From Candidatus Altimarinota bacterium (GTDB lineage Bacteria > Patescibacteriota > Gracilibacteria > UBA4473), in NCBI GenBank assembly GCA_027028725.1, contig JALVIB010000013.1, forward strand, positions 1 through 40,722: a stretch of DNA of 40,722 nucleotides. Reading direction: 5' to 3'. The position numbers and the translations under genes were made by a program. A model generated the notes under the pieces. The model ran no database searches. It was given only the letters and a program-made list of their open reading frames with translations, and was not told the DNA's origin. How positions within the stretch are numbered: the stretch's first letter is position 1; every line of letters starts with the position of its first letter. Below, one piece after another: positions 1 to 40,722 of the stretch.

Positions 1-2
1 GG

Positions 3-161
3 TTAATTCCTTTTGGGAAAGAAAAATTCCCGCGAATTTATCGCAAAACTTCCAAAAGAGAGTTAGAAAAATTATTAAAGAAAAATGGCTTTAAAGTTCG
101 CTATTGTGAGCTATTTCGCGGGAAAAATTTTGTGGTGATTGGAGAGAAACAAACCCCTTAA
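3..161 (+). CDS. 3' end of a CDS entering from the left edge (C-terminal fragment, family uncertain; tail looks like a class I methyltransferase C-terminus)
   Basis: Frame 3 is open from the window edge to TAA at 159-161 (...KRELEKLLKKNGFKVRYCELFRGKNFVVIGEKQTP*). Too short for a firm call. Contains motif cores at 29-36 and 115-122. Confidence 0.3.
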   Translation, partial: LIPFGKEKFPRIYRKTSKRELEKLLKKNGFKVRYCELFRGKNFVVIGEKQTP

Positions 162-246
162 TCCCCTTGTCAGGGGAAATTCATTTGGAAAATTTCGCGG
201 GATTTTTTATTTTTCAATTTTCCAGATTTAATCTAAAATACCGGCG

Positions 247-1560
247 ATGTTAGATTATATCCGAAAACTAATTCCAGAAAGATCCCCTATTCGCTTGTGG
301 TACCACAAGATTTCCGCGATTTTTTCCGCGATTTTTTGGATGTTCCCTGCTGAAAAATTAAAAGTTATTGCGGTCACTGGAACTTCTGGAAAATCGACAA
401 CGGTGGAAATTATTCACCATATTTTACAAAATACTGGTCATAAATGTGGAGCACTTTCAACAATTCAGTTTCATATTGGTGATAAAGTTATCCCAAACAA
501 ATCTCTGCGAACAACTTTGCGTCCGTGGGATATTCATAAAATGTTGCGCAAAATGGTTTCCGCGAAATGCGAGTATGTGGTGATTGAAGTTTCGTCACAC
601 GCTATAGATCAGCATCGTTTATGGGGAGTAAATATTGATACAGCGGTTTTGACAAATGTTTATGACAACGAGCATTTGGATTATCACGGAACTTTTGTTG
701 ATTATCTGAAAACCAAAGAAAAATTGTTTAAGCAATTAAATTACAACAAACGCAAACCGAATGTCCGCAAACAAATGGTTTTGAATCGTGATTCTGAACA
801 TTTTGAAAATTTCGCGGATTTTAATGCTGATAAAACTTGGACTTTTGCTAAAAGAAATCAAGCTGATATTCGTGCCGAAGACCCGCAATTTACCGCGAAA
901 AATACAGCTTTTGATATTCGTGTGCCAAATAACAGCGCACATATCGATGTCCCAATGGTGGGAAATCATAATTTGGAAAATGTTTTGGCAGCTCTCGCGA
1001 CCGGGATGAGCGCCGAAATTTCGATGGCGGATATGGCCAAAGCGCTGGAAAAACTTCCCGGAATTCCAGGACGGCTAGAATCAATTAATTTAGGACAACC
1101 TTTTTCCGTAATTGTTGATTTTTCTTACAAACCAAGTGCTCTAAAAGCGATTTTTAATTCATTGGAAGATTTAACTGAGGGCAGAGTTATTGTTATTTGG
1201 GGCGGAGCTGGTGGTCGCCATATCGAAAATTGGCAAGATTCCGCGAAAATAATTGATGAATATGCGGACGAATTTATTTTAACCACAGATGATCCAGGGA
1301 TGACCGATCCCAAAGAAATCGCGAAAATAATTCGCGAGACAATTGAACGCGAGGAAGCCGACGATTTTTTTGAAATTGAAGATCGCTATGAAGCAATTCG
1401 TTACGCTATTTACACTGCTCAACCTGGCGATACTGTGTTAATCGCGGGACGCGGACATGAGGAAATTCAGACTATTGGCAAAAAGAAAATAAAATTTGAT
1501 GACCGCGAAATAGCCCGCGAAATTTTGCAGTTTGCAGCAGATCATCAGTTGGAAGACTAG
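247..1560 (+). CDS. murE: Mur ligase, MurE type (UDP-MurNAc-L-Ala-D-Glu:diamino acid ligase) with a short N-terminal domain
   Basis: 437-aa ORF. P-loop VTGTSGKSTT. MurE-like blocks DNEHLDYHGTF, GNHNLENVLAALA, PGRLE, VDFSYKPSAL, TTDDPGMTDP, DRYEAI...AGRGHEEIQ. TAG stop. Confidence 0.8.
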   Translation: MLDYIRKLIPERSPIRLWYHKISAIFSAIFWMFPAEKLKVIAVTGTSGKSTTVEIIHHILQNTGHKCGALSTIQFHIGDKVIPNKSLRTTLRPWDIHKMLRKMVSAKCEYVVIEVSSHAIDQHRLWGVNIDTAVLTNVYDNEHLDYHGTFVDYLKTKEKLFKQLNYNKRKPNVRKQMVLNRDSEHFENFADFNADKTWTFAKRNQADIRAEDPQFTAKNTAFDIRVPNNSAHIDVPMVGNHNLENVLAALATGMSAEISMADMAKALEKLPGIPGRLESINLGQPFSVIVDFSYKPSALKAIFNSLEDLTEGRVIVIWGGAGGRHIENWQDSAKIIDEYADEFILTTDDPGMTDPKEIAKIIRETIEREEADDFFEIEDRYEAIRYAIYTAQPGDTVLIAGRGHEEIQTIGKKKIKFDDREIAREILQFAADHQLED

Positions 1561-1576
1561 AGATTAATTAATAGTT

Positions 1577-1692
1577 GTCATTGCGAGGAATGAGGAACGA
1601 ATGACGAAGCAATCTGCTTCTTTGTTTTGCGAAAAAAATTAGCTAAAAATTTGAAGTAGATTGCCACGGTCGTTTCACTCCCTCGCAATGAC
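1577..1692. mobile_element. MITE-like element with 12-bp perfect terminal inverted repeats GTCATTGCGAGG / CCTCGCAATGAC
   Basis: TIRs read directly. Internal GAAGCAATCT ... AGATTGCCACG blocks are shared with the copy at 4171-4298. Non-coding. Lies between murE and argH. Confidence 0.7.
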
Positions 1693-1795
1693 GATATAAA
1701 TAAATTTTTCGCGGGATTTTTATTTGCAATTTTTCGCTCGGAGTAGAAAATTATTGAGATGCGAATTTTCGCGGAATTCTCTAACCCCCACTAAA

Positions 1796-3130
1796 ATGTC
1801 GGACAAAAAAGACACTATCAAAAAGAAAATTTGGTTCAAAGATGGTGCTGTTGAACTAAACCGAATTATTGAAGAATACAACGCCGGTGAGGACATTCTT
1901 TATGATCAAATGATGATTGGAGATGATGTCTGGTGTAGTCGTTGTTATGCGCAACTTTTGGAAAAACATGACTTAATAACACCAGAAGAATTGGCTCAAC
2001 TAGAGCAAGGTTTAGACGAGATTCTGGAACTTTGGGAAAAAGGAGAATTTCAATTACGAGTAGAAGACGAAGATTGTCATACAAAAATTGAGGAATACTT
2101 AATTGAAAGATTTGGGGACACTGGAAAGAAAATTCACACTGGACGATCACGAAATGACCAAGTACTAGTGATGATGCGGTATTTTTTGAAAAATAAGGCG
2201 ACAAAAATCCGCGAAAATATTCTAGATTTAGCGGAATATTTTTTGAAATTCGCGAAAGAATACGAGTTTGTGCCAATGCCGGGATATACTCACATGCAAA
2301 AAGCAATGCCGACAAGTGTCGGGACTTGGGCAAGTTCGTTTGTGGAGTCTTTGCTTGATGATGCACGACTTTTGACCGTGATTACGGACGAAATAATTGA
2401 CCAAAATCCGCTCGGATCAGGAGCTGGATATGGTTCGCCATTTGATTTTGATCGCGATTGGTTGAGTGAAAAACTTGGTTTCAGCCGAACACAAATTAAT
2501 CCGATTTACTGCCAAAATTCTCGCGGGAAATTTGAAGGACTAGTCTTGGAAGCGTGTTGTAACATTATGCTGACTTTAAACAAATTTGCTTCGGATATGC
2601 TTTTCTTTACGACACAAGAATTTCAGTTTTTCAAAATGGATGATTCGATTGCGACTGGTTCTTCCATTATGCCACAAAAGAAAAACCTTGATGTTGCGGA
2701 GTTAATTCGCGGGCGAACAGCAACAGTTTTTGCTTGTCGTCAGGAAATTGCGACTAATACGCTAAACAAAATTTTGGGATATCATCGTGACGGACAAGAG
2801 ATGAAACGACCGCTTTTCCTTGGTTTGCGATATACCGATATGTCGATTGATGCGGCCAAAGCAATTATCGCAAACATTGAACCGAACGAAGAAGTTATGA
2901 TTGAATCGATGATAGCTTCGCCGGGATTATTCGCCGCACACAAAGCGTTTGAATTGGTTAAACAAGGTATGACTTTCCGTGATGCTTATCGTCAAATTGG
3001 ATCAAATATTCAAGGTATTGAAATTTCTCCCGAAGAAATTCGCGAGATGTTGAAACAATCAACTCACCAAGGTGGGACTGGTAACCTTCAACTTGATAAA
3101 CTAGAAGAACAAATCAAAGCAATGCGGTAA
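1796..3130 (+). CDS. argH: argininosuccinate lyase (fumarate-lyase superfamily)
   Basis: Signature blocks HTGRSRNDQV, GYTHMQKAMP, GSSIMPQKKNLDVAELIRG. I prefer the ATG at 1796 (MSDKKD...) over the TTG at 1724, because the 24-aa extension is read through a repeat-filled spacer. Confidence 0.85.
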   Translation: MSDKKDTIKKKIWFKDGAVELNRIIEEYNAGEDILYDQMMIGDDVWCSRCYAQLLEKHDLITPEELAQLEQGLDEILELWEKGEFQLRVEDEDCHTKIEEYLIERFGDTGKKIHTGRSRNDQVLVMMRYFLKNKATKIRENILDLAEYFLKFAKEYEFVPMPGYTHMQKAMPTSVGTWASSFVESLLDDARLLTVITDEIIDQNPLGSGAGYGSPFDFDRDWLSEKLGFSRTQINPIYCQNSRGKFEGLVLEACCNIMLTLNKFASDMLFFTTQEFQFFKMDDSIATGSSIMPQKKNLDVAELIRGRTATVFACRQEIATNTLNKILGYHRDGQEMKRPLFLGLRYTDMSIDAAKAIIANIEPNEEVMIESMIASPGLFAAHKAFELVKQGMTFRDAYRQIGSNIQGIEISPEEIREMLKQSTHQGGTGNLQLDKLEEQIKAMR

Positions 3131-3138
3131 AATAAAAT

Positions 3139-3146
3139 CCCGCGAA
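3139..3146 (+). repeat. short motif core CCCGCGAA, 8 nt after the argH stop
   Basis: TAAAATAAAATCCCGCGAAATAT. Confidence 0.9.
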
Positions 3147-3168
3147 ATATTTTATAACCCCCTTAAAA

Positions 3169-4143
3169 ATGGCTGAACCATGGAACATGCTCGAACTTCT
3201 CCGCGAAAAAATCAAAGCAAAAGGTGGACCTGTTTGTTGTCATGCGCATTTTGATAAAGCGTATGTGGTTACGCCAGAAACTTTGCAAATGTGTAACGAT
3301 CACATGGAAGTAAAATGGGATTTATGGAAAGAGGTTAAAGAAAACTACACTCACAAAGATTTAGTAGAAAGAATTTCGCGGAGTGCGCAAAATTTTGTAA
3401 ACCAAGGTTGCGATATCGTGCGGACAAATATTGATGTTGATGCAACTGTTGGAATGAAATGTATTGAAGCCGCGCTAGAAGTTAAGGAAAAATTCGCGGG
3501 AAAAATTGATATTCAAATTGTTTCACAAGTTTTGGAAGGCGCTCTAACACCGGAAGCGCAAAAGATGATTGAAAAAGCCGCGAAATATGTTGATGTCTTG
3601 GGCGGACTCCCCTCTCGTGATCGACCACATGAAAACGAGCATTTAGATTTCTTGTTCGATCTCGCGAAAAGAATGAATAAAACGGTTGATGTTCACATTG
3701 ACCAAAATAATGATCCCGACGAACGCGATACGGAATTGTTGGTTAAAGCAGTTATCAGAAATGGCATGCAGGGACGAGTGAACGCGATCCATTCTTGTTC
3801 GCTAGCTGCTCAACCTGATGAGTATATTCGCGATGTTGCACAAATGCTTAAAGAAGCAGATATGAGCGTGGTTGTTTGTCCGCGAGCGATGATTGATAAT
3901 CAGCAACCGCGACATAAAACAGGACCAATTCATAACTCAATTGCACCAGTTCCACACTTGATTGAAGCCGGCGTAAATGTTGCACTAGGAGTGGACAATG
4001 TTTATGACTTTTTCTGTCCGTTTATTGATGGAAACTTGTTTACAGAATTAGTTTTCTTGTTGGAAACTACGCGATTTTACGATGTTGATAAACTTGTAGA
4101 TATCGCGACAACTAACGGACGAAAGGTTTTGGAGAATGTTTAA
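3169..4143 (+). CDS. metal-dependent amidohydrolase, cytosine-deaminase-like
   Basis: 324 aa. HxH motif (CCHAHFD), VHIDQ, HSCSL and GVDNVYD blocks are spaced as in the amidohydrolase TIM-barrel fold (CodA-like). Substrate not inferable. Confidence 0.55.
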   Translation: MAEPWNMLELLREKIKAKGGPVCCHAHFDKAYVVTPETLQMCNDHMEVKWDLWKEVKENYTHKDLVERISRSAQNFVNQGCDIVRTNIDVDATVGMKCIEAALEVKEKFAGKIDIQIVSQVLEGALTPEAQKMIEKAAKYVDVLGGLPSRDRPHENEHLDFLFDLAKRMNKTVDVHIDQNNDPDERDTELLVKAVIRNGMQGRVNAIHSCSLAAQPDEYIRDVAQMLKEADMSVVVCPRAMIDNQQPRHKTGPIHNSIAPVPHLIEAGVNVALGVDNVYDFFCPFIDGNLFTELVFLLETTRFYDVDKLVDIATTNGRKVLENV

Positions 4144-4146
4144 AAT

Positions 4147-4154
4147 CCCGCGAA
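4147..4154 (+). repeat. short motif core; the amidohydrolase stop codon is part of the motif flank
   Basis: TAAAATCCCGCGAAATTTT, with TAA at 4141-4143. Confidence 0.9.
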
Positions 4155-4170
4155 ATTTTCCACTTATTCC

Positions 4171-4337: not shown

Positions 4338-4343
4338 AAAAAT

Positions 4344-4351
4344 TTCGCGGG
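4344..4351 (-). repeat. short motif core, 4 nt after the lipoprotein stop (sense orientation)
   Basis: Minus-strand reading is TAAAAATCCCGCGAAATTTTT. Confidence 0.9.
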
Positions 4352-4355
4352 ATTT

Positions 4356-4907
4356 TTAGAATTCGTCAGAGTTAGCGAAAGCTTCCATAGATTTTAATCC
4401 TAATTCAAGAGTGGCAAGTGTTGCTTTTTTATCAACTTCAGTCCAGTCTCCAAATTCTTCATCTGGATTAAACTCTTTATCTTCTTCGTCAGGCAATCCT
4501 AATTCGTCAGACAATTCATCTGCTTTTTTATAACAAATAATTGCTCCTTCTTTTGTCTCTGCTTCTTCTAGACATGATTTATAAAAAGTCATTACTTGAA
4601 TTGATTTAGGCAAATTTTCTTTCATTTTATTTAATTCATCTTTCATCGCTCCCATAGCATTTCCATTCGCCAAAGCTTCTTTCATAGAATCCCCCACCTC
4701 ATCGCTATACTCATCTCCCATGGCTTCTTTCATTCCTTCCGCCATTTTGTCTGCCATTTCGTCATTGGTCATAGTTGTTACTTTGTCTAATTTTTCCGCG
4801 ACTTTATCGGCTAATTCATTACCGCGTTTTTCGGTTTCTGTTTGTCCACAAGCGGTCAAAGAAACAGCCAACGCCAACACAAAGGTGATTGTTAATAGTT
4901 TTTTCAT
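4356..4907 (-). CDS. acidic lipoprotein, unknown function
   Basis: Internal start MKKLLTITFVLALAVSLTAC gives a signal peptide with a lipobox (LTAC). The upstream 21 codons of the tracked ORF look spurious. The rest is E/D/K/M-rich. Confidence 0.6.
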   Translation of the reverse strand: MKKLLTITFVLALAVSLTACGQTETEKRGNELADKVAEKLDKVTTMTNDEMADKMAEGMKEAMGDEYSDEVGDSMKEALANGNAMGAMKDELNKMKENLPKSIQVMTFYKSCLEEAETKEGAIICYKKADELSDELGLPDEEDKEFNPDEEFGDWTEVDKKATLATLELGLKSMEAFANSDEF

Positions 4908-4975: not shown

Positions 4976-5015
4976 AAAAATCCCGCGCTGTGCCCCGCAA
5001 GGCGGTGGAAATTTT
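4976..5015 (+). repeat. composite element copy a (intergenic, abuts trmD stop)
   Basis: AAAAATCCCGCG-CTGTGCCCCGCAAGGCGGTGG-AAATTTT: short motif split by a 21-nt cassette. Confidence 0.9.
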
Positions 5016-5667
5016 ACTGGCAATTATCCTTTCGCCATTGTTCAATCTTGGCGTGATGTCCCGACAGGAGAACTTCAGGAACTTTTAACCCGCGAAAATT
5101 TTCTGGGCGCGTATAGTGTGGATACTCTATTTTTCCATCTAATTTCGCGGAAAAAGACTCTTCCTGATGACTTTCTTCTTTGCCCAGAACATCAGGCAAA
5201 AGTCGCGCTACCGCATCAATAAAAATTTGCGCGGGTAGTTCTCCGCCAGTCAAAACAAAGTTCCCAATAGAAATTTCCATATCAACTAATTCATCGCGAA
5301 CTCGCTGATCAATTCCTTCATAATGTCCGCAGAGCAAAATAACTCGGTCAAAATCCCGCGAAATTTTTTCCGCCATTTCTTGATTAAATATTTCTTTACT
5401 TGGCGTGAAAAAAATCACTGGTGCCTTGTCTTTTTCCAAATTTTTGACATGCTCAATACTATCAAACAATGGTTGACAAGTCATCAACATTCCCGCTCCG
5501 CCACCATAAGGAACATCGTCCACTTTTTTATGTTTGTTTTTAGAAAATTCGCGAATATCCCACAACCTTACTTCAAATTTTTTCTCCTCAATCGCTCGTC
5601 CAATAATAGAAGTCGATAAAAAACTTTCAAAAGCTTCGGGGAAAAGTGTTAAAACTTCAAATTTCAT
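5014..5667 (-). CDS. trmD: tRNA (guanine37-N1)-methyltransferase
   Basis: MKFEVLTLFPE..., DDVPYGGGAGMLM, LLCGHYEGIDQRV, ISIGNFVLTGGELPA, YTRPENFRGLKVPEVLLSGHH: full set of TrmD (SPOUT) blocks. Confidence 0.93.
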   Translation of the reverse strand: MKFEVLTLFPEAFESFLSTSIIGRAIEEKKFEVRLWDIREFSKNKHKKVDDVPYGGGAGMLMTCQPLFDSIEHVKNLEKDKAPVIFFTPSKEIFNQEMAEKISRDFDRVILLCGHYEGIDQRVRDELVDMEISIGNFVLTGGELPAQIFIDAVARLLPDVLGKEESHQEESFSAKLDGKIEYPHYTRPENFRGLKVPEVLLSGHHAKIEQWRKDNCQ

Positions 5668-5892: not shown

Positions 5893-6001
5893 ATTTTCTT
5901 CTGACCCCCAAATTTCTATCCTTTTTCAGCGAGAATTCCCGCGAAATTTTGATTTTTTAGAAAAAAAATTATAAAGTTGGAGTGTAAATAAACCCCCCTT
6001 T

Positions 6002-7810: not shown

Positions 7811-7811
7811 T

Positions 7812-7819
7812 TTCGCGGG
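7812..7819 (-). repeat. short motif core, 1 nt after the 602-aa gene stop
   Basis: TAATTTCGCGGGATTTTGG. Confidence 0.9.
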
Positions 7820-7860
7820 ATTTTGGAAAGTCGCGCCTACAATTTTTCACACTTCTGAAA

Positions 7861-7977: not shown

Positions 7978-8170
7978 ATTCCTCAGACCTCTGAATTTCT
8001 CCCCTTCTTCCGTGAAATTCCCGCGAAATTTTTACTCCGCATCAGTGTACTAGTACATTAGTTCAGCCAAATCACTTTCTTATCTTATAAACTTATTGTC
8101 TTGTAAACTTGTGAACTCGTAAACCAACTCTTTATCTTTTCGACTTTTTAGCTTTTGAGCTGTCCTAAAT

Positions 8171-8198: not shown

Positions 8199-8208
8199 TC
8201 CCCAAAAT

Positions 8209-8216
8209 CCCGCGAA
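8209..8216 (+). repeat. short motif core, 3 nt after the mraY stop
   Basis: Minus-strand reading is TAAAATTTCGCGGGATTTTGGGG. Confidence 0.9.
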
Positions 8217-8219
8217 ATT

Positions 8220-32007: not shown

Positions 32008-32015
32008 TTCGCGGG
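32008..32015 (-). repeat. short motif core, 12 nt after the 1,796-aa gene stop
   Basis: Minus-strand reading is TAAAATCCCTAAAATCCCGCGAAAATTT. Confidence 0.9.
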
Positions 32016-32027
32016 ATTTTAGGGATT

Positions 32028-35000
32028 TTATTTTGGAGGACTCCAACTCATTAAAACTTTTTCAATAACTTCAGTATTTTCAAAGTATTTTTCGCGTGTT
32101 TCTGGACTATCTAATAATTTTTTTGCCTTTTCCCAAACACCACTTTCTTCCAACTTCTTTTTTCGCTCTTTATATTGAATTCCATATTCCAAAACACCCA
32201 TAAAATCTAAAACTTCTCCAAATCCATCATCACCACCAGCAACTTGAAAAACCTGTTTCATAAAACTATTAATTTGTTCTTTGCTTCTTTGAGCCGAAGC
32301 TGAATAACCTGTATCTTCCTTTCTCCAATCTTCTGCATTAAAGACTATTGAACCACGCTCCTGTCCAAGGTTAATATTACCTTGAAGTGTTTGAGTTACA
32401 GTTAAAGCCGCATTTAATCTGTCTCCAACCTCAATTAATGCTCTTTTCCTTTCTTTTTGCCAACCAGGTAATTCACCCCATTTTTCATCTCCTTCTTTAA
32501 TATAATCCCGCATCATTTGCATATATGTCGGAAATCCTGATAAATAACGACGCCAAAGGTCGTTTGACAATTTGTTTTCACCACCAGAAGATTGTGACAT
32601 ATTGTTTATAAGATGGACCTGCTTCCAGTCCGCGAAAAAACTTTCTGCATCATCATGATCTCCCTCTTTATCTGAAAAACGATCCATTCGCGAAACACGA
32701 TCACGAGCCGGTGGGGAAGCATGTACAATATGATAAAAGAATTTTTTTGTTTGTTCTTTAATATTAGAATCATTAAGAATATCAAAAGACCCACCTCCAT
32801 TACCAAGAAAGTCTCCCCAAGCCTTATAGTCTTCATATGTCCACCCTCTTTTTTCTGCTCCTGGAGTGTCTTCTGGAACAATTCTGCCATTTAATTTATA
32901 AGATTCCTTATCTGTTAAAAAATCAACATGTGGAAATCTTGCTAAAAATTTATCATTAATTCGCATAAAGGCATCTCGTGAAATTAAACTACGATTTGTT
33001 TTAGGATTTATAGTAGCAACCCCCATTACTAAAAAATACCATCTTTGATCAGGTTGTCCGTTCATTTTTCCTTTCTCAAAAGACTCATGAATAAAACATT
33101 CATATTTCGCGGGATCTACATCTGTACTATCTCCTCTTGCCCATTTTTTTAACATTGTTGATAAAATCCTACTCCTAGCTACAGGAGAGTCCTCATATCT
33201 AGCAAAATCAGCTTTAAAACTATCGATTGCTGAATCAAGTTTACCTTTAAGATTAGTATCCCAATCTCGGAATGTTTCTTTTGACCAAATAAATTCACAA
33301 GCATTACGAACTTTGTCCAAGATTTCTAAACGAGAAAGATTTAAGTCTTCAGGAATACGGAAAGTAACTGCATTTCCGGACAACCTCATCAAAGTTCTCC
33401 ATAGTCCAGGATCATCCCATTGCAAAACCCCCTTATCTAACATCAATCTAATCAAAGCTTTAGCTTCATCTTGGTCATTGGTACGATATAAGGCATCTTG
33501 CAAATCCCATCCCGGCACTTCTCCATACTGAGTTTCAAATTCTTTAACCCGGTTTTCTTCTGCTTCTTCTGCCTTTTGCTTAAAATCTTTTCCCCAAGCT
33601 GATTTCTCACCAAAAAAACTCATTCCAATATTTGCCACAGCTCGCTCTGAATCACGCTGCCATCTTCTTTCATGCACTTCAATTGCTTGTTTTACAATGG
33701 CATATAAATCATACAATGAGAATCTTTGATAATTCCTCTGAGGACCACTGTTTTTGGCATTATCATCATATTCTGTCACCCATTTTTTAATTTTTTGCGC
33801 ACTATCATTGGCGCTCTTTGAATAATCTCGCAAAGAATTAAAATCTGCCATTTCAGCAATAGCTTCTGCTCTGTCCTGCGGAGATGCATCATAACGATTA
33901 ATCCAGTCTTTTAGGAACCCTGACTTAAAAAATTTATCTGATTTTTCTTTAAATTCATTCAGTCTTGCTCTATGTTGACTCAAAATATCTTCTAAATACT
34001 CCTTATCCAAACCATATTTATTAAAGAAGTCTTGATCATCCATTTTGTTTAAATCTCGACGGATTCGACTTTCAACATCATTAATTGCTTCCTGATATTC
34101 CGCGAAATCTTTTTTAAACCCTTTAACTACCTCATTATAATTTTTGGTAAATTCTTCTTTATCAGGCGTATCATCATCAAAAAATTGCAACTCGGTCAGA
34201 AGCTCCAAAGCTCTATTGGAATCTTCCAAATATTTATTTAAAGACTCACTTTCTTTAGCAAATTTCCCGTCTCGAAAATTCAAAGCTGTTTCAAGTTTGA
34301 TGAAATTATCAGCGAAAATTTCCCAGAAAGTCTCTTTTCCCGTAAATTTATAATCAATTTTTTTCGCGTGTTTTTGCAAATTATCAAAAGTCTTCTGGAA
34401 ACTATCCAACATTTTCATTGGAACTTCCATCAATAAATCGGTAAATTCAGCCGGATTAACTCCTTCCGGCAAAACTTCGTTAATGACTGTACCTAAATCT
34501 AAAAATTTATTTCTTAATTTCTCCTTTTGTTCCGGCCATTTCTCAAAAAGTTTATCTAACTCATTTTTAGCTTCTGCTTGACGCAAACTCGCCGCAATCG
34601 GATCATCTTTCATCTTAGAAATCCCGCGAAATTTTTCAGCAATTTGGGCAATATCATCCCGTAATCCATTAGTTATTTCTGCAATTTCATTATTAACACT
34701 CTGTGTTTGTAAAGCTATTTCATTCAAAAACTCGCGCCCCGGAGCCCAAATTAATTTAGGTTTACCATTTTTATCTTTTCCCCAATATCGCCCGCCTCTT
34801 TGATAAGCTTGTTTGCGGTACTCAAAGGACTCTTCTAATTTATCTGCTTCATCTAAATAATGTTGTTTTTTCGCGGGATTTGTTTCTTCTTCAGCTTTAC
34901 GACGCAACCGTTCTACATAAGCTTCATTAACTTGGTGTGCATCTTCTATTTCTTGTGATGTAATTAATTTATTTTGCTCATAAGCCACATGATCTTCGTG

Positions 35001-37418
35001 TAATTTTGTCGGATCAACTCCCGCTGCCAAACCATTATGAATTCGGTCCCAACCAGCATAGAAGTCATTTAATTCTTCTTCGGTCAATTCATCACGAACA
35101 TCTCTTGAGGCAATATCAAAGATTCGATCTCGATAACTGTGAATTGCTCCATCAACAAGCTGTGAAAGTTGTTGTGGATGCGGAAATTCTTGTCGCAAAT
35201 CAAATCCTTCTTCTGCCAAACGCGCAATAATATTTTCGTAACTAAGCGCTTTATCTAGTTCGTTATACCATGGCGAGAATTTATCTTCTCCGTCTGAAAG
35301 ATGTTCAATATCCGGTAAAACAGTGTCTTCAAAAATTGATTCCAAAATTCCCGCGAATTTTTGACGAAATTCATTAACTTTTTCCTTATTTGGAGTGTTT
35401 AGAATATTATCGCGAAATTCCGCAAAATCTGCATAATAAGGATTTCGCGGATTATTAACTTCGTCTCCCCAGAGAACTTCAAAATCCGCCGCATATAAAT
35501 TTCGATTAGCAATTCTTGAATTTATATTACTTAAAAATAAATCCTTTGATTCTCTCGCGACTTTTTTCGGGTCTTTTAGGAAATGTTGCCAAGTTTTATA
35601 TGTGTCTAAATTCTTTGTTTCATCGCGAACCTTTTCTTTTAATTTTTTATATTTTTCATTTAGCTTATTTCTTTCTTCCTCGTAAGAACTTACGATTGGC
35701 ACTTGTCCATAAAGCGTTTTGGCTTGATTTTCCCACCTATTAATTTCTTGACCATACTTTTTAAATCCTTCCTGTTGTTTCTTGTAATTCTCATTTTCTT
35801 TTAAGTCTGAGCTAAGCTTAATTGATAATTCTCTAAATTCTTCAATAAATTTTTCGCGGGATTTTAAATCACTTCCTATGCTTGCCTTATCCGTTGAAAA
35901 TCTTTTTATTTTCGCGGGAATTCCTTCTTTTATCTCTTTTTCTTTATTTTCAAATCTTTTTTCATTATTTTTCAGTAATTCTTCTCTTCTCTTCTCATCT
36001 TCTATTTTCTGAATTTCTAAATCACTTTTAATTTTTTCCAATTCAAGTTCTTCTAATTTCTTTTCCTTTATGCTTTCCCATGCCTTTTCCAAATCCTTAA
36101 CCCATTCATCAAAATCTTTATTCCAATGTCTTTCAATAATTTCATTTTTTTCTTCTAATAATTTTTTATAGTTCTGCTCAATTACTTCTACTTTATTAAA
36201 ATCAACAATTTTAGACGCTTCCCAAGCGTCTTTAATTTTTTTCTTCTCCGTCTCATTTCCTTCTAAATAAGACTGAAGACCATATCTTTCTACTGACAAT
36301 TTTTTATTTTCCAAATCTCGCAGTTTCTTTTCCAACTTATCTAGTTCCTCATTTTCCGCAGAAAAATTGAGCCATTCATCTAAATCTTTAATTTGAACGA
36401 GTTCAAAATCTTCTTGCAAAATTTCGTGCAAAGCTTGCAGATGTGTCGGCAAGAAAACCGGCGATTTTTGCGCAAATTGCAAAAACTTAATCGCTTCAGT
36501 TGATTTAAATGCTTTATTAATCTCTTCTTCTTTTACGATACTGAGAATTTTGCGTCGCAAAGTTTCTGCCGACTCTACTTCTGATGGACTTCCCAAAAAC
36601 TCGCGAAGTAATTCCCAAGTAAAAGCCATATTAGGATTGTAAAGTTTCTTTGGCGACTTCAAGAGAGTGGCCACCGCCTGAACAGCAATATTATCCCAAT
36701 CATAAAACCGACTTTTTTCCGCCCATTTTCTCTCGTTCGGAAACATTCGACGAATCTCCAAAACAAGCAATTTTTCTTCCAAAGTCATTACTTCATTCTT
36801 CTTTGATTCAATAATATCGTAGGCCTTATCCCCGCTAGTGACAGACTTGGTCATCAAAGTAAAAGCCTTATCCACAATTTTTTCGCGGGCTTTTTCAAAA
36901 ACATCTTTTCGTTTCCCGTCTTTCAAAACAGCATTTTTTTGTAACCTTCGATACAAAGCACAAACTTTGGAAAGCTCAAAAGTGCTCCAATTATTTTTAT
37001 TCACAATGCTCCCCAAAGCACGCACCTGCTTATCAACTTCCGCGATAATTTGGTTCTGCATACGCTTTGGTAGAAGCTTACGCAGTGGAGAATCCGCTAA
37101 ATGATTCAACAATCGCGGTGGCAAATCTTCCATATCTTTCCCCCGCGCTAAGCTCAGCTGATATCCCGCGATATTTCGAAAACGACGCTTTTGAAAAGCG
37201 TTCATATGCTCCGCATTTTCTTCCAAAAATCGCAATTCTTTCACACCAAACCCTAGCGGACTGCGCAGAGCTTTTTCTATTTGTTTATCAATATCTTCCT
37301 TATCTTCAGGAACAGAAGGTCCTTTTGGTCCACCGGCAAAGTATAAAAATTTACCAGCGCCGTGCCCCGCTAAGCGGTGGAAATCTTCATTTTCAAACCC
37401 GTTAAATAATTTTTTCAT
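32028..37418 (-). CDS. large (about 1,796 aa) E/K-rich coiled-coil protein, no signal peptide, unknown function
   Basis: Uninterrupted ORF 86 nt upstream of the giant gene on the same strand. Start set at MKKLFNG (ATG complement 37416-37418), because the tracked 23-aa extension is read through a motif copy (FFAGF). No catalytic motif recognised. Confidence 0.65.
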   Translation of the reverse strand: MKKLFNGFENEDFHRLAGHGAGKFLYFAGGPKGPSVPEDKEDIDKQIEKALRSPLGFGVKELRFLEENAEHMNAFQKRRFRNIAGYQLSLARGKDMEDLPPRLLNHLADSPLRKLLPKRMQNQIIAEVDKQVRALGSIVNKNNWSTFELSKVCALYRRLQKNAVLKDGKRKDVFEKAREKIVDKAFTLMTKSVTSGDKAYDIIESKKNEVMTLEEKLLVLEIRRMFPNERKWAEKSRFYDWDNIAVQAVATLLKSPKKLYNPNMAFTWELLREFLGSPSEVESAETLRRKILSIVKEEEINKAFKSTEAIKFLQFAQKSPVFLPTHLQALHEILQEDFELVQIKDLDEWLNFSAENEELDKLEKKLRDLENKKLSVERYGLQSYLEGNETEKKKIKDAWEASKIVDFNKVEVIEQNYKKLLEEKNEIIERHWNKDFDEWVKDLEKAWESIKEKKLEELELEKIKSDLEIQKIEDEKRREELLKNNEKRFENKEKEIKEGIPAKIKRFSTDKASIGSDLKSREKFIEEFRELSIKLSSDLKENENYKKQQEGFKKYGQEINRWENQAKTLYGQVPIVSSYEEERNKLNEKYKKLKEKVRDETKNLDTYKTWQHFLKDPKKVARESKDLFLSNINSRIANRNLYAADFEVLWGDEVNNPRNPYYADFAEFRDNILNTPNKEKVNEFRQKFAGILESIFEDTVLPDIEHLSDGEDKFSPWYNELDKALSYENIIARLAEEGFDLRQEFPHPQQLSQLVDGAIHSYRDRIFDIASRDVRDELTEEELNDFYAGWDRIHNGLAAGVDPTKLHEDHVAYEQNKLITSQEIEDAHQVNEAYVERLRRKAEEETNPAKKQHYLDEADKLEESFEYRKQAYQRGGRYWGKDKNGKPKLIWAPGREFLNEIALQTQSVNNEIAEITNGLRDDIAQIAEKFRGISKMKDDPIAASLRQAEAKNELDKLFEKWPEQKEKLRNKFLDLGTVINEVLPEGVNPAEFTDLLMEVPMKMLDSFQKTFDNLQKHAKKIDYKFTGKETFWEIFADNFIKLETALNFRDGKFAKESESLNKYLEDSNRALELLTELQFFDDDTPDKEEFTKNYNEVVKGFKKDFAEYQEAINDVESRIRRDLNKMDDQDFFNKYGLDKEYLEDILSQHRARLNEFKEKSDKFFKSGFLKDWINRYDASPQDRAEAIAEMADFNSLRDYSKSANDSAQKIKKWVTEYDDNAKNSGPQRNYQRFSLYDLYAIVKQAIEVHERRWQRDSERAVANIGMSFFGEKSAWGKDFKQKAEEAEENRVKEFETQYGEVPGWDLQDALYRTNDQDEAKALIRLMLDKGVLQWDDPGLWRTLMRLSGNAVTFRIPEDLNLSRLEILDKVRNACEFIWSKETFRDWDTNLKGKLDSAIDSFKADFARYEDSPVARSRILSTMLKKWARGDSTDVDPAKYECFIHESFEKGKMNGQPDQRWYFLVMGVATINPKTNRSLISRDAFMRINDKFLARFPHVDFLTDKESYKLNGRIVPEDTPGAEKRGWTYEDYKAWGDFLGNGGGSFDILNDSNIKEQTKKFFYHIVHASPPARDRVSRMDRFSDKEGDHDDAESFFADWKQVHLINNMSQSSGGENKLSNDLWRRYLSGFPTYMQMMRDYIKEGDEKWGELPGWQKERKRALIEVGDRLNAALTVTQTLQGNINLGQERGSIVFNAEDWRKEDTGYSASAQRSKEQINSFMKQVFQVAGGDDGFGEVLDFMGVLEYGIQYKERKKKLEESGVWEKAKKLLDSPETREKYFENTEVIEKVLMSWSPPK
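37354..37385 (+). repeat. composite element copy h (degenerate left flank; in frame at the N-terminus of the 1,796-aa gene)
   Basis: CCAGCG-CCGTGCCCCGCTAAGCGGTGG-AAATC. Read antisense as DFHRLAGHGAGKF. Confidence 0.8.
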
Positions 37419-37555
37419 TTGTAATCCGAAGATTATACCATAAAATCCCGCGAAAAAATAGACACATGAAGCTATTTTCGCTTGCAATAAGACGACATAT
37501 GTTAATTTTATAAAATTTCGCGGAATTTTTTATTTTTTTCGTGCATTTGTTGTTG

Positions 37556-37581: not shown

Positions 37582-37614
37582 ACGCGTATTTCTAAATTTT
37601 TTCGCGGGATTTTC

Positions 37615-37826: not shown

Positions 37827-39860
37827 ATGTCATTTGCAGTTCACACTTTCGAAACTCATCCCGAAGATTCGGGACTGGCTTTTGCTTATCACGAAAATAT
37901 TGGCGAAGGTCAAGATGTTTTTTTTCGCGGGAAATTTCCCGAAGGCACAACTGATGCGACAACTGTTGCTGAATCTATTTTCGGGGCAATTGTTGATAGT
38001 TTAAAAATTCTTAAAAAAGGTGATAGCTACGATCGTTTTGAAGATGCTTTGAAGTCAGCAAATTTAGAATTCAAGAAAAATCTCGCGAAAATTCCAGCTA
38101 TGCCAGACATTGTTGTGAGTTATTTTGATTTTAACAATTTGTATTTAAGTCAGTCTGGAAAAGCCGAGGCTTACTTAATTCGCAACGGAGCAATTTCACA
38201 AATTTCCGAAACACCGGACTCTGATAGCGAATTATTTTTAAATATTCTAAGCGGACAAGTAGCCGTTAACGATATAATTTTAATTAGCAATAATCGCCTA
38301 TTGCACTCTATTACGACAAGCCAATTAATCGATATTTTTTCGCGGGCAGATTTCAAAGAAGCCGTAGCAACTTTGCGACACGAATTACAAATGAAATCCG
38401 AAGAAGATTTAATTGTTACGGTTATCGGAGTCGGGAAAAAAGAAGATTTAGGCGCTGCTGGATTTCTTTCACGTATGGTTTCCAAAATGTCTGCACCAAA
38501 AGTTTTAGACAAGGTTTACACTGCTGACAAAGATGAAGAAATCTCAGCCGAAATTGAAGAAAATCCCGCTGCGCCCCGCAAGGCGGTGGCGAAATTAGCT
38601 GAAGAAGTGCCAAATGAACCTGAATGTGAACCCAAATTAATTTCTGATGAAGACATTGAAGCACCGAAAAAACTTGATGAGAAATTTGAAATGGAAATGC
38701 CGAAAGTGGATTTGAAAAATATCGGAAAATTAGGCGAAAAAATCCCTAATTTTTTCCGCAACCTTCCGCCAAAAAAGGTTTTGATGAAATACGCGGGAAT
38801 TGTCGCGGGACTTTTGATTTTATTCATCGCTGGAAAAGCAATTATCGGATACGAATCAGAAGACACCAAAGCCATGCGCGAAGAATTATCTATCGCTCGT
38901 GAAGCTATTCAACAAGCTGATATTTTCTTGACCCAAGGAGATCGTCAATCAGCTTCTGATTTATTAACAAAAGCTCAAAGTTCTCTACAAGTTGTTTTGA
39001 ATTCTAAATCACAATTTCGTTCTGATGCTCAATTTTTATTGGCTGATATTCAAGAAAAACAACTTCAAGTCGAAAACGCCCACAAAGTTCAGGCGCAGGT
39101 TTTATCTGATTTAGCGACCAAAAACGACAACATTGTTGCTAACGGCTTGCTAAAACTCCGCGAAAATTTATTCGCTTATGACTCTCACTTAGTTTACAAA
39201 ACAATCAGAAATATTGTCGAAAAAGGTGTAACAATTTCCGATAAAGAAAGTATCGTATCAGGTGCGGTTCGTGAGCCACAAAACACCTTGGTATTTTTGA
39301 CAGATATACCGCGAGTTATTGAATACAAAAATGGAGTAATTTCTCCGATGTCCACTTCTGACGAAACTTGGAAACACGGTTTAGATATTGAAACCTACGG
39401 ATCTCGTTTTATCTACATTCTTGATCCGGTCGAAAACCAAATTTGGAAATACGAGCGCCGAAAAAACAACTACTCTGGAGCAATTGCTTATAATCAAGGT
39501 GCTGACTTATCTCGCGCTATTAGTTTCGCAATTGACGGTGCGCTTTATGTACTTTCTGATGATGGAACTATCCAGAAATTATTTCGCGGGGAAAAACAAG
39601 AATTCGCTTTCCGCGAAATGCCAAGCACTCCGATTTCTGGTAAAAATTTAAAGATTTACACTTCCGCTGACCTTGATTACCTCTATATTCTTGATCCGGA
39701 TAACGAACGAATTTTGATCTTCACCAAAGGTGAAAAATTCGCGACTTATAAGAAACAAATTATTTACAGCGTTCCTGGTGCGGCAGATTTCGTAATTGAT
39801 AGCGCCGGACAAAAAGCCAACATTGTCACTAAAGACAAAATTTACGAATTCTCACTATAA
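37827..39860 (+). CDS. bitopic membrane protein: cytoplasmic PP2C-like (apparently inactive) domain, one TM helix, large extracytoplasmic beta-rich domain
   Basis: 677 aa. Residues 1-210 follow the PP2C block order (...SGKAEAYLIRNGAISQISE..., ...NDIILISNNRLLHSIT..., ...EDLIVTVIGV), but the metal-binding Asp positions are replaced. TM helix YAGIVAGLLILFIAGKAIIGY at about 38775-38850. One composite repeat in frame (PAAPRKAVA). Confidence 0.5.
   Translation: MSFAVHTFETHPEDSGLAFAYHENIGEGQDVFFRGKFPEGTTDATTVAESIFGAIVDSLKILKKGDSYDRFEDALKSANLEFKKNLAKIPAMPDIVVSYFDFNNLYLSQSGKAEAYLIRNGAISQISETPDSDSELFLNILSGQVAVNDIILISNNRLLHSITTSQLIDIFSRADFKEAVATLRHELQMKSEEDLIVTVIGVGKKEDLGAAGFLSRMVSKMSAPKVLDKVYTADKDEEISAEIEENPAAPRKAVAKLAEEVPNEPECEPKLISDEDIEAPKKLDEKFEMEMPKVDLKNIGKLGEKIPNFFRNLPPKKVLMKYAGIVAGLLILFIAGKAIIGYESEDTKAMREELSIAREAIQQADIFLTQGDRQSASDLLTKAQSSLQVVLNSKSQFRSDAQFLLADIQEKQLQVENAHKVQAQVLSDLATKNDNIVANGLLKLRENLFAYDSHLVYKTIRNIVEKGVTISDKESIVSGAVREPQNTLVFLTDIPRVIEYKNGVISPMSTSDETWKHGLDIETYGSRFIYILDPVENQIWKYERRKNNYSGAIAYNQGADLSRAISFAIDGALYVLSDDGTIQKLFRGEKQEFAFREMPSTPISGKNLKIYTSADLDYLYILDPDNERILIFTKGEKFATYKKQIIYSVPGAADFVIDSAGQKANIVTKDKIYEFSL
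38560..38596 (+). repeat. composite element copy i (in frame in the 677-aa gene)
   Basis: AAAATCCCGC-TGCGCCCCGCAAGGCGGTGGC-GAAATT. Read as NPAAPRKAVAKL. Confidence 0.85.
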
Positions 39861-39925: not shown

Positions 39926-39939
39926 AAATTTATAAAAAT

Positions 39940-39947
39940 CCCGCGAA
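39940..39947 (+). repeat. short motif core, 4 nt upstream of the FNR-family start codon
   Basis: AAAAATCCCGCGAAAAAAATG. Confidence 0.9.
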
Positions 39948-39951
39948 AAAA

Positions 39952-40674
39952 ATGAAAGATTTCACCAGCAAAATTCTCGATATCAAAAAAATTGCGACAG
40001 ACACCAAGCGTTTTATTTTTTCTAAACCAACTAATTACGATTTTCAAGCGGGACAATTTTTGATTATAAAATTCGCGAAAGATTTGATACGCGCTTATTC
40101 CATCGCTTCTCCGCCGAGTGAAGAAAATTTGGAACTAGTTATTCGCATTATTCCCAATGGTCGCGGGACAAGTATTCTGGATAAAGCCAAAATTAGTGAT
40201 GAGTTTACTATTTCTCAATCGATGGGACATTTTGTTTTATCAGAAAATCAAGAAGCGGAATTATTTTTTCTGGCTACAGGAACAGGAATTGCCCCATTTA
40301 AATCTATGATTTGCACAGAAGCGCAGAAAAAAATCCCGCGAAAAATGCATTTGTTTTACGGCGGACGCCAAGTGGAAGATTTACCTTATTTAGACGAAAT
40401 TTCCTCTTGGACAGAAAATTTGGAAGTTAAGATTGGTCTTTCTCGTGATCCTGATGCTAAAAAAAGAGAATTTTCAAACTTAAAAGCTGAAATTGATAAC
40501 TGCCGAATTACCAAATTCATTGAAAACGAAAATTTCCACCGCTTAGCGGGGCACGGCGCGGGAAATTCCGAGTTTTACATCTGCGGAAATAAAGGCATGG
40601 TCGAAGGAACTCGCGATTTATTATTAGAAAAAGGAATAGAAAAATCACGGATATTTTTTGAGAAGTTTAATTAA
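39952..40674 (+). CDS. ferredoxin-NADP reductase-family FAD/NAD(P)-binding oxidoreductase
   Basis: 240 aa. FAD motif RAYSIAS, NAD(P) motif LATGTGIAPFKSM, C-terminal YICG block. A 12-aa repeat-encoded insertion (FHRLAGHGAGNS) sits just before YICG. Confidence 0.75.
   Translation: MKDFTSKILDIKKIATDTKRFIFSKPTNYDFQAGQFLIIKFAKDLIRAYSIASPPSEENLELVIRIIPNGRGTSILDKAKISDEFTISQSMGHFVLSENQEAELFFLATGTGIAPFKSMICTEAQKKIPRKMHLFYGGRQVEDLPYLDEISSWTENLEVKIGLSRDPDAKKREFSNLKAEIDNCRITKFIENENFHRLAGHGAGNSEFYICGNKGMVEGTRDLLLEKGIEKSRIFFEKFN
40529..40567 (-). repeat. composite element copy j (in frame in the FNR-family gene)
   Basis: Reverse complement is AATTTCCCGCG-CCGTGCCCCGCTAAGCGGTGG-AAATTTT. Read antisense as NFHRLAGHGAGNS. 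Confidence 0.9.
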
Positions 40675-40684
40675 TTAAAAAAAA

Positions 40685-40696
40685 CAAGTCCGGACT
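40685..40696. repeat. AAGTCCGGACTT palindrome, 11 nt after the FNR-family gene stop
   Basis: Exact 12-mer. Confidence 0.85.
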
Positions 40697-40722
40697 TGGC
40701 ACAGGATAAAAAGATCTTAAGT

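Follow-up and report, generated by a model that had tools for sequence, protein, structure and literature searches.

To our knowledge, sequence-specific uptake of DNA is known from two proteobacterial families only, the Neisseriaceae with their DNA uptake sequence (DUS) and the Pasteurellaceae with their uptake signal sequence (USS). The sequence-level fingerprint of these systems, which we use for comparison, has been described (PMC3630211, 10.1101/2025.10.24.684340). The highly iterated palindrome 1 (HIP1) of cyanobacteria is likewise hyperabundant, 15- to 300-fold, and has an unsettled function with a possible link to transformation (PMC5861425, 10.1101/2024.09.10.611283). Here we analyse a word of 18 letters, AAAATCCCGCGAAATTTT, that occurs about once per 400 bases, essential genes included, in a stretch of 40,722 nucleotides (hereafter the window) from Candidatus Altimarinota bacterium (assembly GCA_027028725.1, contig JALVIB010000013.1). 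The window is core chromosome of a bacterium of the Peregrinibacteria/Gracilibacteria type in the candidate phyla radiation (CPR). A model's reading of the letters, referred to below as the original prediction, had noticed the 8-nt core of the word and likened it to DUS and USS. Our best explanation, which we rank first and hold tentatively, is by analogy the same: the word may be a lineage-specific signal for the uptake and transformation of self DNA.

The word and its distribution

The core, CCCGCGAA, is present in 102 exact copies, 45 on the plus and 57 on the minus strand. This is the very count that the original prediction had made by eye, and its list of core starts was right at every position except one (7367, a typographical slip for 7357). 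The comparison with a Markov background that it had named bears out the enrichment: models of order 0 and order 2 give 0.33 and 2.7 expected copies, respectively, and dinucleotide-preserving shuffles predict 1.56 +/- 1.23, with a maximum of 6. Alignment of all copies gives the logo AAAAT-CCCGCGAA-A-WWWT, in which information content is restricted to positions -5 to +12 and the flanking sequence is random; the unit is therefore the 18-nt word itself and not part of a longer repeat. An exact 17-mer, AAAATCCCGCGAAATTT, is found 16 times in the window. The abundant one-mismatch variants that had been reported were also found, with three of the five quoted positions (811, 14603 and 22268) seen again. 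Just two such variants are common, TCCGCGAA with 32 copies and CTCGCGAA with 13, and the CGCGAA part is essentially invariant, changes there being at background level. Relaxing the core to YYCGCGAA brings the number of sites in the window to 155 (3.8/kb), the largest gap between them being at most 993 bp. Symmetry is avoided, the count being 0 for CCCGCGGG and 8 for TTCGCGAA, and the word is thus truly asymmetric, despite the palindromic character of 14 of its 18 positions. Read directly from its sequence, it has no stop codon in any of the six frames, and it does not fold (0 kcal/mol). A search of the window against Rfam gave no match.

Two other identities for the word were tried and ruled out. 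A miniature inverted-repeat transposable element (MITE) or other longer repeat is rejected on the random flanks past 18 nt and on repeat families having just the word in common, and a signal at the RNA level on the lack of folding and the balance of sense and antisense copies (40:36).

Coding DNA, which makes up 90% of the window, carries 76 copies at 2.07/kb, and the spacers carry 26 at 6.6/kb, about 3-fold more densely, many of them adjoining a stop codon. About 75% of copies are thus intragenic, counter to the extragenic pattern of MITEs or of repetitive extragenic palindromes (REP) and bacterial interspersed mosaic elements (BIME). As had been predicted, copies occupy all six frames (sense 16/19/5, antisense 13/11/12), and KSREI, NPAK, IPRN, NFAGF, ISRD and KFRG/KIRG recur as peptides.

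The orientation of the word is unrelated to transcription and replication. In the window the cumulative GC skew is monotonic, yet copies stand at 45:57; across 43 loci of the clade defined below orientation stands at 555:560 and is uncorrelated with GC skew, and the comparison with the replication strand that had been proposed thus reveals no polarity. The same ratios rule out a replication-polar word of the kind of Chi or the FtsK orienting polar sequences (KOPS). Spacing is evener than random, with a coefficient of variation (CV) of 0.76 versus 0.99 (P=0.001).

Relatives, conservation and a longer form

The exact 17-mer was sought in one genome per species from 185,579 species. Among the matches listed, the multi-hit contigs came from two 'Candidatus Peribacteria' metagenome-assembled genomes (MAGs), CAZMOH01 and CAZYIR01, and four Bacteroidota-labelled records also had several copies. 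One CAZMOH contig is orthologous to the window at 86% amino-acid identity, and the named homologues of the window's MutL are from Candidatus Gracilibacteria and Peregrinibacteria. The enrichment extends well beyond the window: L084 and L085, whose MutL is 72-79% identical and which were fetched through that protein without regard to the word, have 2.1 copies/kb. The next relatives (MutL 53-55% identical) have 0-0.06/kb. Assemblies from JGI, ENA and Logan supplied additional clade members (L117-L119, L124 and L126). A search of sister genomes for the same word, as the original prediction had proposed, thus finds it in at least five related lineages at 2-2.5/kb, and 282 kb of clade DNA hold 3.7 relaxed sites/kb. 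In CAZYIR a second form, TTCCGCGAA, is nearly as frequent as TCCCGCGAA; this two-form usage is, by analogy, a dialect comparable to those described for DUS (PMC3630211).

Two clade segments related to type IV secretion systems (T4SS), presumed to be mobile (n=2), are motif-poor: a TraG/VirB4-like insert of L084 has about 1 copy/kb versus 3/kb in its flanks, and a T4SS-pilin/PKD gene of L036 has 3 relaxed sites in 4.75 kb. The latter (L036 3222-6716) encodes a protein of 1164 aa with a T4SS pilin domain (TrbC/VirB2-like) and PKD repeats, and lies in the largest motif-poor stretch of the 282 kb. Among 2.9 million IMG/VR viral contigs none is motif-dense. The longer form of the word described below is missing there too, and a phage origin is rejected on these two grounds. 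A sister lineage, L086-L088 (MutL 55% identical, GC 44%), is without the word and is saturated with words of a T-tract, G and an A-tract, e.g. TTTTGAAAAA and TTTTGGAAAAAA; the count of AAAAATTT is 56 in 21.8 kb. Such words look like the AT-tract flanks of the window's word with its GC core missing.

Among the Bacteroidota-labelled DNA, short contigs binned as Saprospiraceae (L029) and Crocinitomicaceae (L039) bear the full word at clade density, L039 being 76% identical in nucleotides to the clade locus L023; misbinning of clade DNA probably accounts for both. The chromosome of a Tenacibaculum MAG (OZ251501.1, 3.98 Mb) has the word at 1-1.6/kb in islands flanked by insertion sequences, which encode a BRO-N protein, a large serine recombinase, a 703-aa protein and a 5-methylcytosine (m5C) methylase. 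The mobile-element contigs on which the 703-aa protein has homologues also carry genes for type I restriction-modification, the antiphage system CBASS, a relaxase and an integrase, and in homologous contigs (L122 6247-10692; L123) the copies of the word are at the same positions; the protein has no match in phage or plasmid collections. L077, a contig of a Flavobacteriales-labelled MAG, has 7 copies in 3.5 kb around a protein with a type IX secretion (T9SS) tail, and its positions 2236-2270 match a 35-nt GTAG hairpin of the window (37547-37581) at 35/35 bases. An origin of the word in Bacteroidota is rejected, the L029 and L039 cases being probable misbinning and the Tenacibaculum and L077 cases local islands. 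The islands could have arisen by exchange of DNA between the CPR clade and a host in Bacteroidota, or be products of chimeric assembly, and the word could serve as a tracer of DNA flow between CPR epibionts and Bacteroidota hosts.

To measure conservation, orthologous sequences were aligned in pairs over 31.9 kb, where nucleotide identity is 77.6%. A random 8-mer is unchanged between partners in 17% of cases and a motif core in 65.5%; 38 sites are shared and 40 unshared. Among the unshared sites 36 can be aligned gap-free, half of them (18) differing by one core base and the other 18 by at least two. Lineage-specific copies in general align without gaps, which indicates that the word was written by substitution and not inserted. 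Of the seven copies that mutL has in the window, two other genomes match five exactly, flanks included. The residues that the word encodes there fall at weakly conserved positions (0.37 vs 0.57, P=0.04) and replace the outgroup consensus (ILKE by ISRE, EYE by SRE, FQD by FAG); a force at the DNA level thus overrode the protein sequence. Copies of DUS and USS likewise stand at permissive protein positions and replace residues (10.1101/2025.10.24.684340). At one orthologous spacer site the word is in opposite orientations in two genomes. The relatives also have six perfect inverted pairs, CCCGCGAAATTTCGCGGG, each followed by a run of T and all non-coding, of which the window itself has none; they look like terminators, as similar pairs do in the DUS and USS systems.

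Ten places in the window carry a longer form, AAAATCCCGCG-CTGTGCCCCGCAAGGCGGTGG-AAATTTT, which is the word split by an insert of 21 nt or seven codons. The insert is in-frame, nine of the ten places are intragenic, and the long form, like the short one, is stop-free in six frames. Filled and empty sites could be paired at two loci. In the oxidoreductase gene the insert (HRLAGHG) is present in the window and in its closest relative, L117, and L118 (73% identical) has an intact word, AAAAATTTCGCGGGAAATTC, at the empty site; the second pair is the 1819-aa gene, filled in the window and empty in L119. The long form thus conforms to the pattern of the Rickettsia palindromic elements (RPE), as an in-frame insert present or absent at orthologous intragenic sites. 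The insert is not found in 151 kb of CAZMOH, in L085 or in L119. CAZYIR has it as a tandem doublet at two loci (L075 701-743 and 2104-2146), the units having loops CCC and TCT and lying inside the TTTCGCG|AAA dialect of the word. Two further clade contigs also contain it; an exact 21-mer scan of metagenomes for a parent element returned just two clade contigs and an unrelated high-GC gene (two contigs). Strong secondary structure of the long form is unsupported for three of the four copies folded (z -0.45 to -0.8), the fourth having z = -2.9. No transposase, recombinase, retroelement or other enzyme tied to the sites of the word or insert was found. Since the insert occurs at unrelated loci, copying between copies of the motif is needed, and its presence in ten copies shows, at the level of sequence, that a copy or conversion process acts on word sites.

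Explanations of the word

From the abundance, anatomy, distribution, conservation, clade limits and dialect of the word, which are established together with some competence genes, we infer a link to uptake. That reading is ranked first because these properties match the DUS/USS fingerprint and because it makes sense for an epibiont living amid host DNA. Every sequence-level hallmark of DUS and USS on which the clade DNA gave a clear answer is seen here, so that they are the best-supported analogy. A mechanism can be proposed as follows: 1) A surface DNA receptor of the competence machinery, by the type IV pilus, ComEA or ComEC route, would prefer double-stranded DNA bearing the word. 2) Fragments from relatives would consequently be imported and recombined, through DprA and RecA, more often than the far commoner host or foreign DNA. 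3) This uptake bias, plus any selection for the bias, would drive point substitutions by which the word arises or is repaired at places where the protein tolerates it. 4) The outcome would be thousands of evenly spread copies in both orientations. 5) Inverted pairs in spacers would be co-opted as terminator hairpins. The clade DNA available, about 0.3 Mb drawn from a number of incomplete genomes, has recognisable competence genes for DprA, a ComF-like phosphoribosyltransferase and a PilB-type ATPase (T2SSE + MshEN). ComEC is reported to be present in 86% of CPR genomes (PMC6744442), and natural transformation that depends on comEC has been reported in Saccharibacteria (PMC10633639).

Several observations weigh against an uptake signal. 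The same ~0.3 Mb of clade DNA has no recognisable ComEC and no recognisable pilin. At 2.5-3.8/kb the word occupies about 4.5-7% of the DNA, above known uptake sequences with at most ~2% (10.1101/2025.10.24.684340). HIP1 has the same fingerprint of hyperabundance, conservation and near-periodic spacing, and its function is unsettled (PMC5861425). The word is also present at ~1-1.6/kb in mobile-element islands of Bacteroidota genomes. Each orientation taken alone is evenly spaced (CV 0.67-0.72, P<=5e-4), and neighbours alternate, with 193 same-orientation pairs out of 530 where 252 are expected, or 323 out of 918 for the relaxed word where 449 are expected; we know of no alternating neighbour orientation or per-orientation even spacing in DUS or USS. 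Finally, the 21-nt insert in ten copies and the flip in orientation need copying between loci, which uptake bias with homologous recombination does not predict. As for what had been predicted, the likeness to DUS and USS stood at the level of sequence, with uptake a putative function; the proposed search for competence genes found the three named above, with comEC and pilins unseen in the ~0.3 Mb. The judgement that the word is not a transposon was sound for the short word, new copies of which appear indel-free in conserved genes, and missed the insert.

The even spacing can also be read as the mark of an abundant DNA-handling protein unrelated to uptake, whose recognition site would be Chi-like and read by a helicase-nuclease coming from either side of a break, would mark self DNA in an organism that takes in foreign DNA, or would organise the nucleoid; copies would stay evenly spaced if selection favoured one site of each orientation in every stretch of DNA. 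The asymmetry of the word, with per-orientation even spacing and alternating neighbours, suggests orientation-specific reading; the high conservation of cores and a RecB-like helicase fragment in L011 agree with it, and mobile elements that carry the word would gain from a self marker. Chi and KOPS, however, have 5-8 nt, are far sparser and are strongly co-oriented with replication, unlike the 555:560 ratio here with its lack of relation to GC skew. No candidate protein was found, and the RecB-like match could equally be a helicase of the UvrD/PcrA type. We regard this explanation as unlikely.

We are similarly doubtful of a self-propagating micro-repeat with no cellular function, spread by ectopic short-patch conversion or by an enzyme acting on the 18-nt site and surviving inside genes through the absence of stops in six frames. 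It would account for the in-frame insert at ten unrelated loci, two of whose empty sites are intact in relatives, for the tandem doubling at two CAZYIR loci with no insert in 151 kb of CAZMOH, for the orthologous site with flipped orientation, for the half of the unshared sites (18/36) with at least two core bases changed relative to the partner, and for the stop-free short and long forms. Intragenic copies, however, align gap-free to outgroup residues, so that the short word was not inserted. Even spacing and 65% conservation are unexpected for a neutral selfish repeat, the sites come with no transposase, recombinase or retroelement, and half of the unshared sites are one base apart, as stepwise change predicts.

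A broader and improbable possibility, to be entertained as speculation, is that the word acts as substrate for a DNA-copying process not yet described, in which sites of 18 nt, thousands of them in and between genes, exchange sequence with one another. Intragenic, convertible repeats of this kind would form a new class with a link to natural transformation in CPR. Such a process would explain how the insert spread and came to be doubled in tandem, why one site is flipped and why orientations alternate; imported single-stranded fragments might anneal to ectopic copies, or an enzyme specific for the site might do the copying.

The original prediction had also offered a link to restriction or methylation, and a by-product of methylation-linked repair bias on the CGCG core, in the manner of very-short-patch repair or of HIP1 and its orphan methyltransferases, can be formulated. 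The core does contain CGCG, HIP1 carries methylation, on which its enhancement of transformation depends (10.1101/2024.09.10.611283, PMC4390886), and an m5C methylase gene bearing the motif lies in the Tenacibaculum island. T is nearly absent at the two CpG cytosines (0 and 1 copies) and common at the two non-CpG cytosines (32 and 13), a distribution compatible with such a bias that also means no C-to-T decay at CpG. A partial sample of 296 kb of clade DNA has no homologue of Dcm, Vsr or the m5C methylase of L042. An asymmetric 18-nt word far exceeds the context of a methylase or of very-short-patch repair, symmetric variants are essentially missing, and even spacing is not predicted. We consider this explanation very improbable, and the methylation alternative found no support in the 296 kb. 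An assembly artefact or local duplication limited to this contig is refuted and deserves virtually no credence, the same word being found at the same density and at orthologous positions in independent NCBI, ENA, JGI and Logan assemblies.

An uptake-signal-like word may be new for CPR, and its copying behaviour may be new as well. We found no paper that pairs 'uptake sequence' with Patescibacteria; with 'candidate phyla radiation' the sole match was a review of methods for detecting horizontal gene transfer. The Peribacteria genome paper makes no mention of such a word, and literature searches with the sequence string matched unrelated primers only. If the word is an uptake signal, it would be the third independent case and the first in CPR; it would explain how tiny epibionts amid host DNA, lately shown to be transformable, tell kin DNA from host DNA, and addition of the word to donor DNA would offer a handle for genetic manipulation. 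If its function is not uptake, it becomes a second unexplained hyperabundant word beside HIP1, and a useful one, being asymmetric, young, restricted to a clade and endowed with a visible copying variant. As a sequence tag, an uptake signal would also aid binning, the spotting of foreign islands and the tracing of gene flow to possible hosts.

Placement in the window and comparison with known systems

The window contains ordinary chromosomal genes, among them those for a Mur ligase, a Lyase_1 enzyme, an amidohydrolase, an mraY-like transferase, a phosphoglucomutase, a thioredoxin and an FNR-like oxidoreductase, as well as trmD, rplS, mutL and truB. There are also two giant open reading frames (ORFs) of 3844 and 1819 aa, and the long ORFs read through with the standard code. 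Positions of all copies are given in Table 1.

Table 1. Copies of the word, its long form and other mapped features (window positions unless another record is named)
Feature	Position	Strand	Location and remarks
word array, whole window	1..40722	both	102 exact, 155 with YYCGCGAA
word	24..41	+	intergenic
word	110..127	-	intergenic
word	189..206	-	intergenic
word	1509..1526	+	Mur ligase gene, sense; kept in L052
word	1703..1720	-	intergenic
word	2701..2718	-	Lyase_1 gene, antisense
word	3134..3151	+	intergenic
word	3488..3505	-	amidohydrolase gene, antisense
word	4142..4159	+	intergenic, adjoins stop codon; L126 has inverted pair here
word	4339..4356	-	intergenic, adjoins stop codon
word	5084..5101	+	trmD, antisense
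word	5350..5367	+	trmD, antisense
word	5933..5950	+	intergenic
word	6132..6149	+	602-aa ORF, sense
word	6435..6452	+	602-aa ORF, sense
word	6710..6727	-	602-aa ORF, antisense
word	7111..7128	+	602-aa ORF, sense
word	7352..7369	-	602-aa ORF, antisense; core start 7357
word	7807..7824	-	intergenic, adjoins stop codon
word	8015..8032	+	intergenic
word	8204..8221	+	intergenic, adjoins mraY-like stop codon
word	8525..8542	-	mraY-like gene, sense; common to L084
word	9012..9029	+	mraY-like gene, antisense; one-base variant in L084, L085
word	9355..9372	-	intergenic
word	9649..9666	+	intergenic, adjoins rplS stop codon
word	10160..10177	-	intergenic
word	10271..10288	+	intergenic
word	10545..10562	+	intergenic
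word	10947..10964	-	mutL, antisense, FAG; kept in L084, L085
word	11081..11098	-	mutL, antisense, ISRE; kept in L084, L085
word	11245..11262	+	mutL, sense, SRE; kept in L084, L085
word	11622..11639	-	mutL linker, antisense; window-specific
word	11735..11752	+	mutL linker, sense, IPRN; one-base variant in L084
word	12016..12033	+	mutL, sense, SRE; kept in L084, L085
word	12204..12221	-	mutL, antisense, FAG; kept in L084, L085
word	12459..12476	+	intergenic, adjoins mutL stop codon
word	13333..13350	+	PGM/PMM gene, antisense
word	13550..13567	-	PGM/PMM gene, sense
word	13816..13833	-	PGM/PMM gene, sense
word	14192..14209	-	PGM/PMM gene, sense
word	14379..14396	-	PGM/PMM gene, sense
word	15195..15212	-	intergenic
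word	15497..15514	+	truB, sense
word	15815..15832	-	truB, antisense
word	15958..15975	-	truB, antisense
word	16564..16581	-	intergenic, adjoins stop codon
word	17191..17208	+	intergenic
word	17544..17561	+	NTP-transferase gene, antisense
word	17839..17856	-	NTP-transferase gene, sense
word	18105..18122	+	NTP-transferase gene, antisense
word	18308..18325	+	559-aa ORF, antisense
word	18624..18641	-	559-aa ORF, sense
word	18810..18827	+	559-aa ORF, antisense
word	19047..19064	-	559-aa ORF, sense
word	20014..20031	+	intergenic
word	20239..20256	-	intergenic
word	20391..20408	-	intergenic, adjoins stop codon of 3844-aa ORF
word	20706..20723	-	3844-aa ORF, sense
word	21068..21085	+	3844-aa ORF, antisense
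word	21210..21227	-	3844-aa ORF, sense
word	21301..21318	+	3844-aa ORF, antisense
word	21542..21559	-	3844-aa ORF, sense
word	22169..22186	-	3844-aa ORF, sense
word	22792..22809	-	3844-aa ORF, sense
word	23559..23576	-	3844-aa ORF, sense
word	24771..24788	-	3844-aa ORF, sense
word	25137..25154	+	3844-aa ORF, antisense
word	25365..25382	-	3844-aa ORF, sense
word	25662..25679	+	3844-aa ORF, antisense
word	25774..25791	-	3844-aa ORF, sense
word	25902..25919	+	3844-aa ORF, antisense
word	26177..26194	-	3844-aa ORF, sense
word	26396..26413	-	3844-aa ORF, sense
word	26811..26828	+	3844-aa ORF, antisense
word	27089..27106	-	3844-aa ORF, sense
word	27915..27932	+	3844-aa ORF, antisense
word	27996..28013	+	3844-aa ORF, antisense
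word	28635..28652	-	3844-aa ORF, sense
word	28967..28984	+	3844-aa ORF, antisense
word	29058..29075	-	3844-aa ORF, sense
word	29295..29312	-	3844-aa ORF, sense
word	29507..29524	-	3844-aa ORF, sense
word	29666..29683	+	3844-aa ORF, antisense
word	30257..30274	-	3844-aa ORF, sense
word	30523..30540	+	3844-aa ORF, antisense
word	31633..31650	+	3844-aa ORF, antisense
word	31736..31753	-	3844-aa ORF, sense
word	32003..32020	-	intergenic
word	33101..33118	-	1819-aa ORF, sense; common to L119
word	34618..34635	+	1819-aa ORF, antisense; common to L119
word	34865..34882	-	1819-aa ORF, sense; common to L119
word	35345..35362	+	1819-aa ORF, antisense; common to L119
word	35848..35865	-	1819-aa ORF, sense
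word	35906..35923	-	1819-aa ORF, sense; common to L119
word	36877..36894	-	1819-aa ORF, sense
word	37442..37459	+	1819-aa ORF, antisense
word	37596..37613	-	intergenic
word	37919..37936	-	677-aa ORF, antisense; common to L119
word	38334..38351	-	677-aa ORF, antisense
word	39578..39595	-	677-aa ORF, antisense
word	39935..39952	+	intergenic
word	40330..40347	+	FNR-like oxidoreductase gene, sense, KIPRKM; kept in L117, L118, L119
long form, insert CTGTGCCCCGCAAGGCGGTGG	4977..5016	+	intergenic
long form	19484..19523	+	559-aa ORF
long form	22075..22114	-	3844-aa ORF
long form	23319..23358	+	3844-aa ORF
long form	27277..27316	+	3844-aa ORF
long form	28222..28261	-	3844-aa ORF
long form	28328..28367	+	3844-aa ORF; flanking motif is TTTCGCG variant
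long form	37349..37388	+	1819-aa ORF; matching L119 place is intact short motif
long form	38559..38597	+	677-aa ORF; insert two bases further left (CCCG|insert|CGAAA)
long form	40528..40567	-	oxidoreductase gene; insert adds HRLAGHG
GTAG repeat starts	5848-, 5892-, 7929-, 7977-, 9534-, 9609-, 10240+, 11585+, 37555+	as marked	one copy in mutL linker
Tenacibaculum island segments	L053 498-5115; L042 2960-3660		OZ251501.1

Other repeats stand among these copies. The GTAG(G/A)-headed repeats, found in spacers of the window and once in the mutL linker, continue into a perfect GC-rich hairpin of 7-9 bp, whose stem differs from copy to copy, and are REP-like; the GTAG head of REP elements is recognised by REP-associated tyrosine transposases (RAYT). 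Tandem blocks of about four heptamers each (TTAACTA/TTAACTT) lie in spacers beside gene ends at 8167-8195, 9612-9640, 10509-10540, 16156-16185 and 37654-37685, three of the five being directly followed by a copy of the word; they might be bound by a regulator as an array, or act as a promoter or terminator element. Palindromes AAGTCCGGACTT are paired about 20 nt apart in inverted arrangement at 11765-11808 and 39882-39925. In the mutL linker, a window-specific stretch of ~100 nt (11640-11735), gapped in the orthologues, separates two inverted copies (11627-, 11740+) and holds a hairpin, CCCTCTCCCCGAGGGAGAGGG, to which L126 has a similar one. In L117 (~1512-2279, the ortholog of window 39952-40674) an extra in-frame insert of 45 nt, GEIYPERQTEFQKSE, stands directly 5' of the KIPRKM copy; it is found neither in the window nor in any other relative.

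Among known systems, the word resembles the DUS of Neisseriaceae (GCCGTCTGAA / AT-DUS), whose receptor is the minor pilin ComP, in being short, asymmetric and hundreds-fold over-represented, equal on both strands, present in genes and spacers with enrichment in the latter, and in forming inverted pairs that look like terminators; both have family-level dialects and conserved copies at permissive protein positions. It differs in its sequence, its phylum (CPR) and its density, which is two to four times higher, and in that its AT-tract flanks carry part of the information, its orientation alternates and a 21-nt insert variant exists. With the USS of Pasteurellaceae (AAGTGCGGT with AT-rich flanks) it shares a GC-rich core followed by AT-rich tracts, even spacing, and accumulation by substitution in coding sequence, on which it is imposed in several frames, whereas the flanks of USS reach ~29 nt and information here stops at 18 nt; the other differences from DUS apply to USS too. 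HIP1 (GCGATCGC) offers a parallel in hyperabundance, intragenic copies, conservation above expectation, near-periodic spacing and a possible transformation link, but is a perfect palindrome, phylum-wide and associated with orphan methyltransferases, whereas the present word is asymmetric, has no methylase in 296 kb and is confined to a genus-level clade. Chi and KOPS, or the architecture imparting sequences (AIMS), are likewise oriented, over-represented and genome-wide, but they are strongly co-oriented with replication and much sparser, in contrast to the balanced and alternating copies seen here. Finally, the long form behaves like REP/BIME and RPE elements as an in-frame insertion tolerated in protein genes, whereas the short word is neither insertion nor hairpin; the insert targets the word itself, measures 21 nt against ~35 nt for REP and 100-150 nt for RPE, and is unrelated to RPEs in size and sequence.

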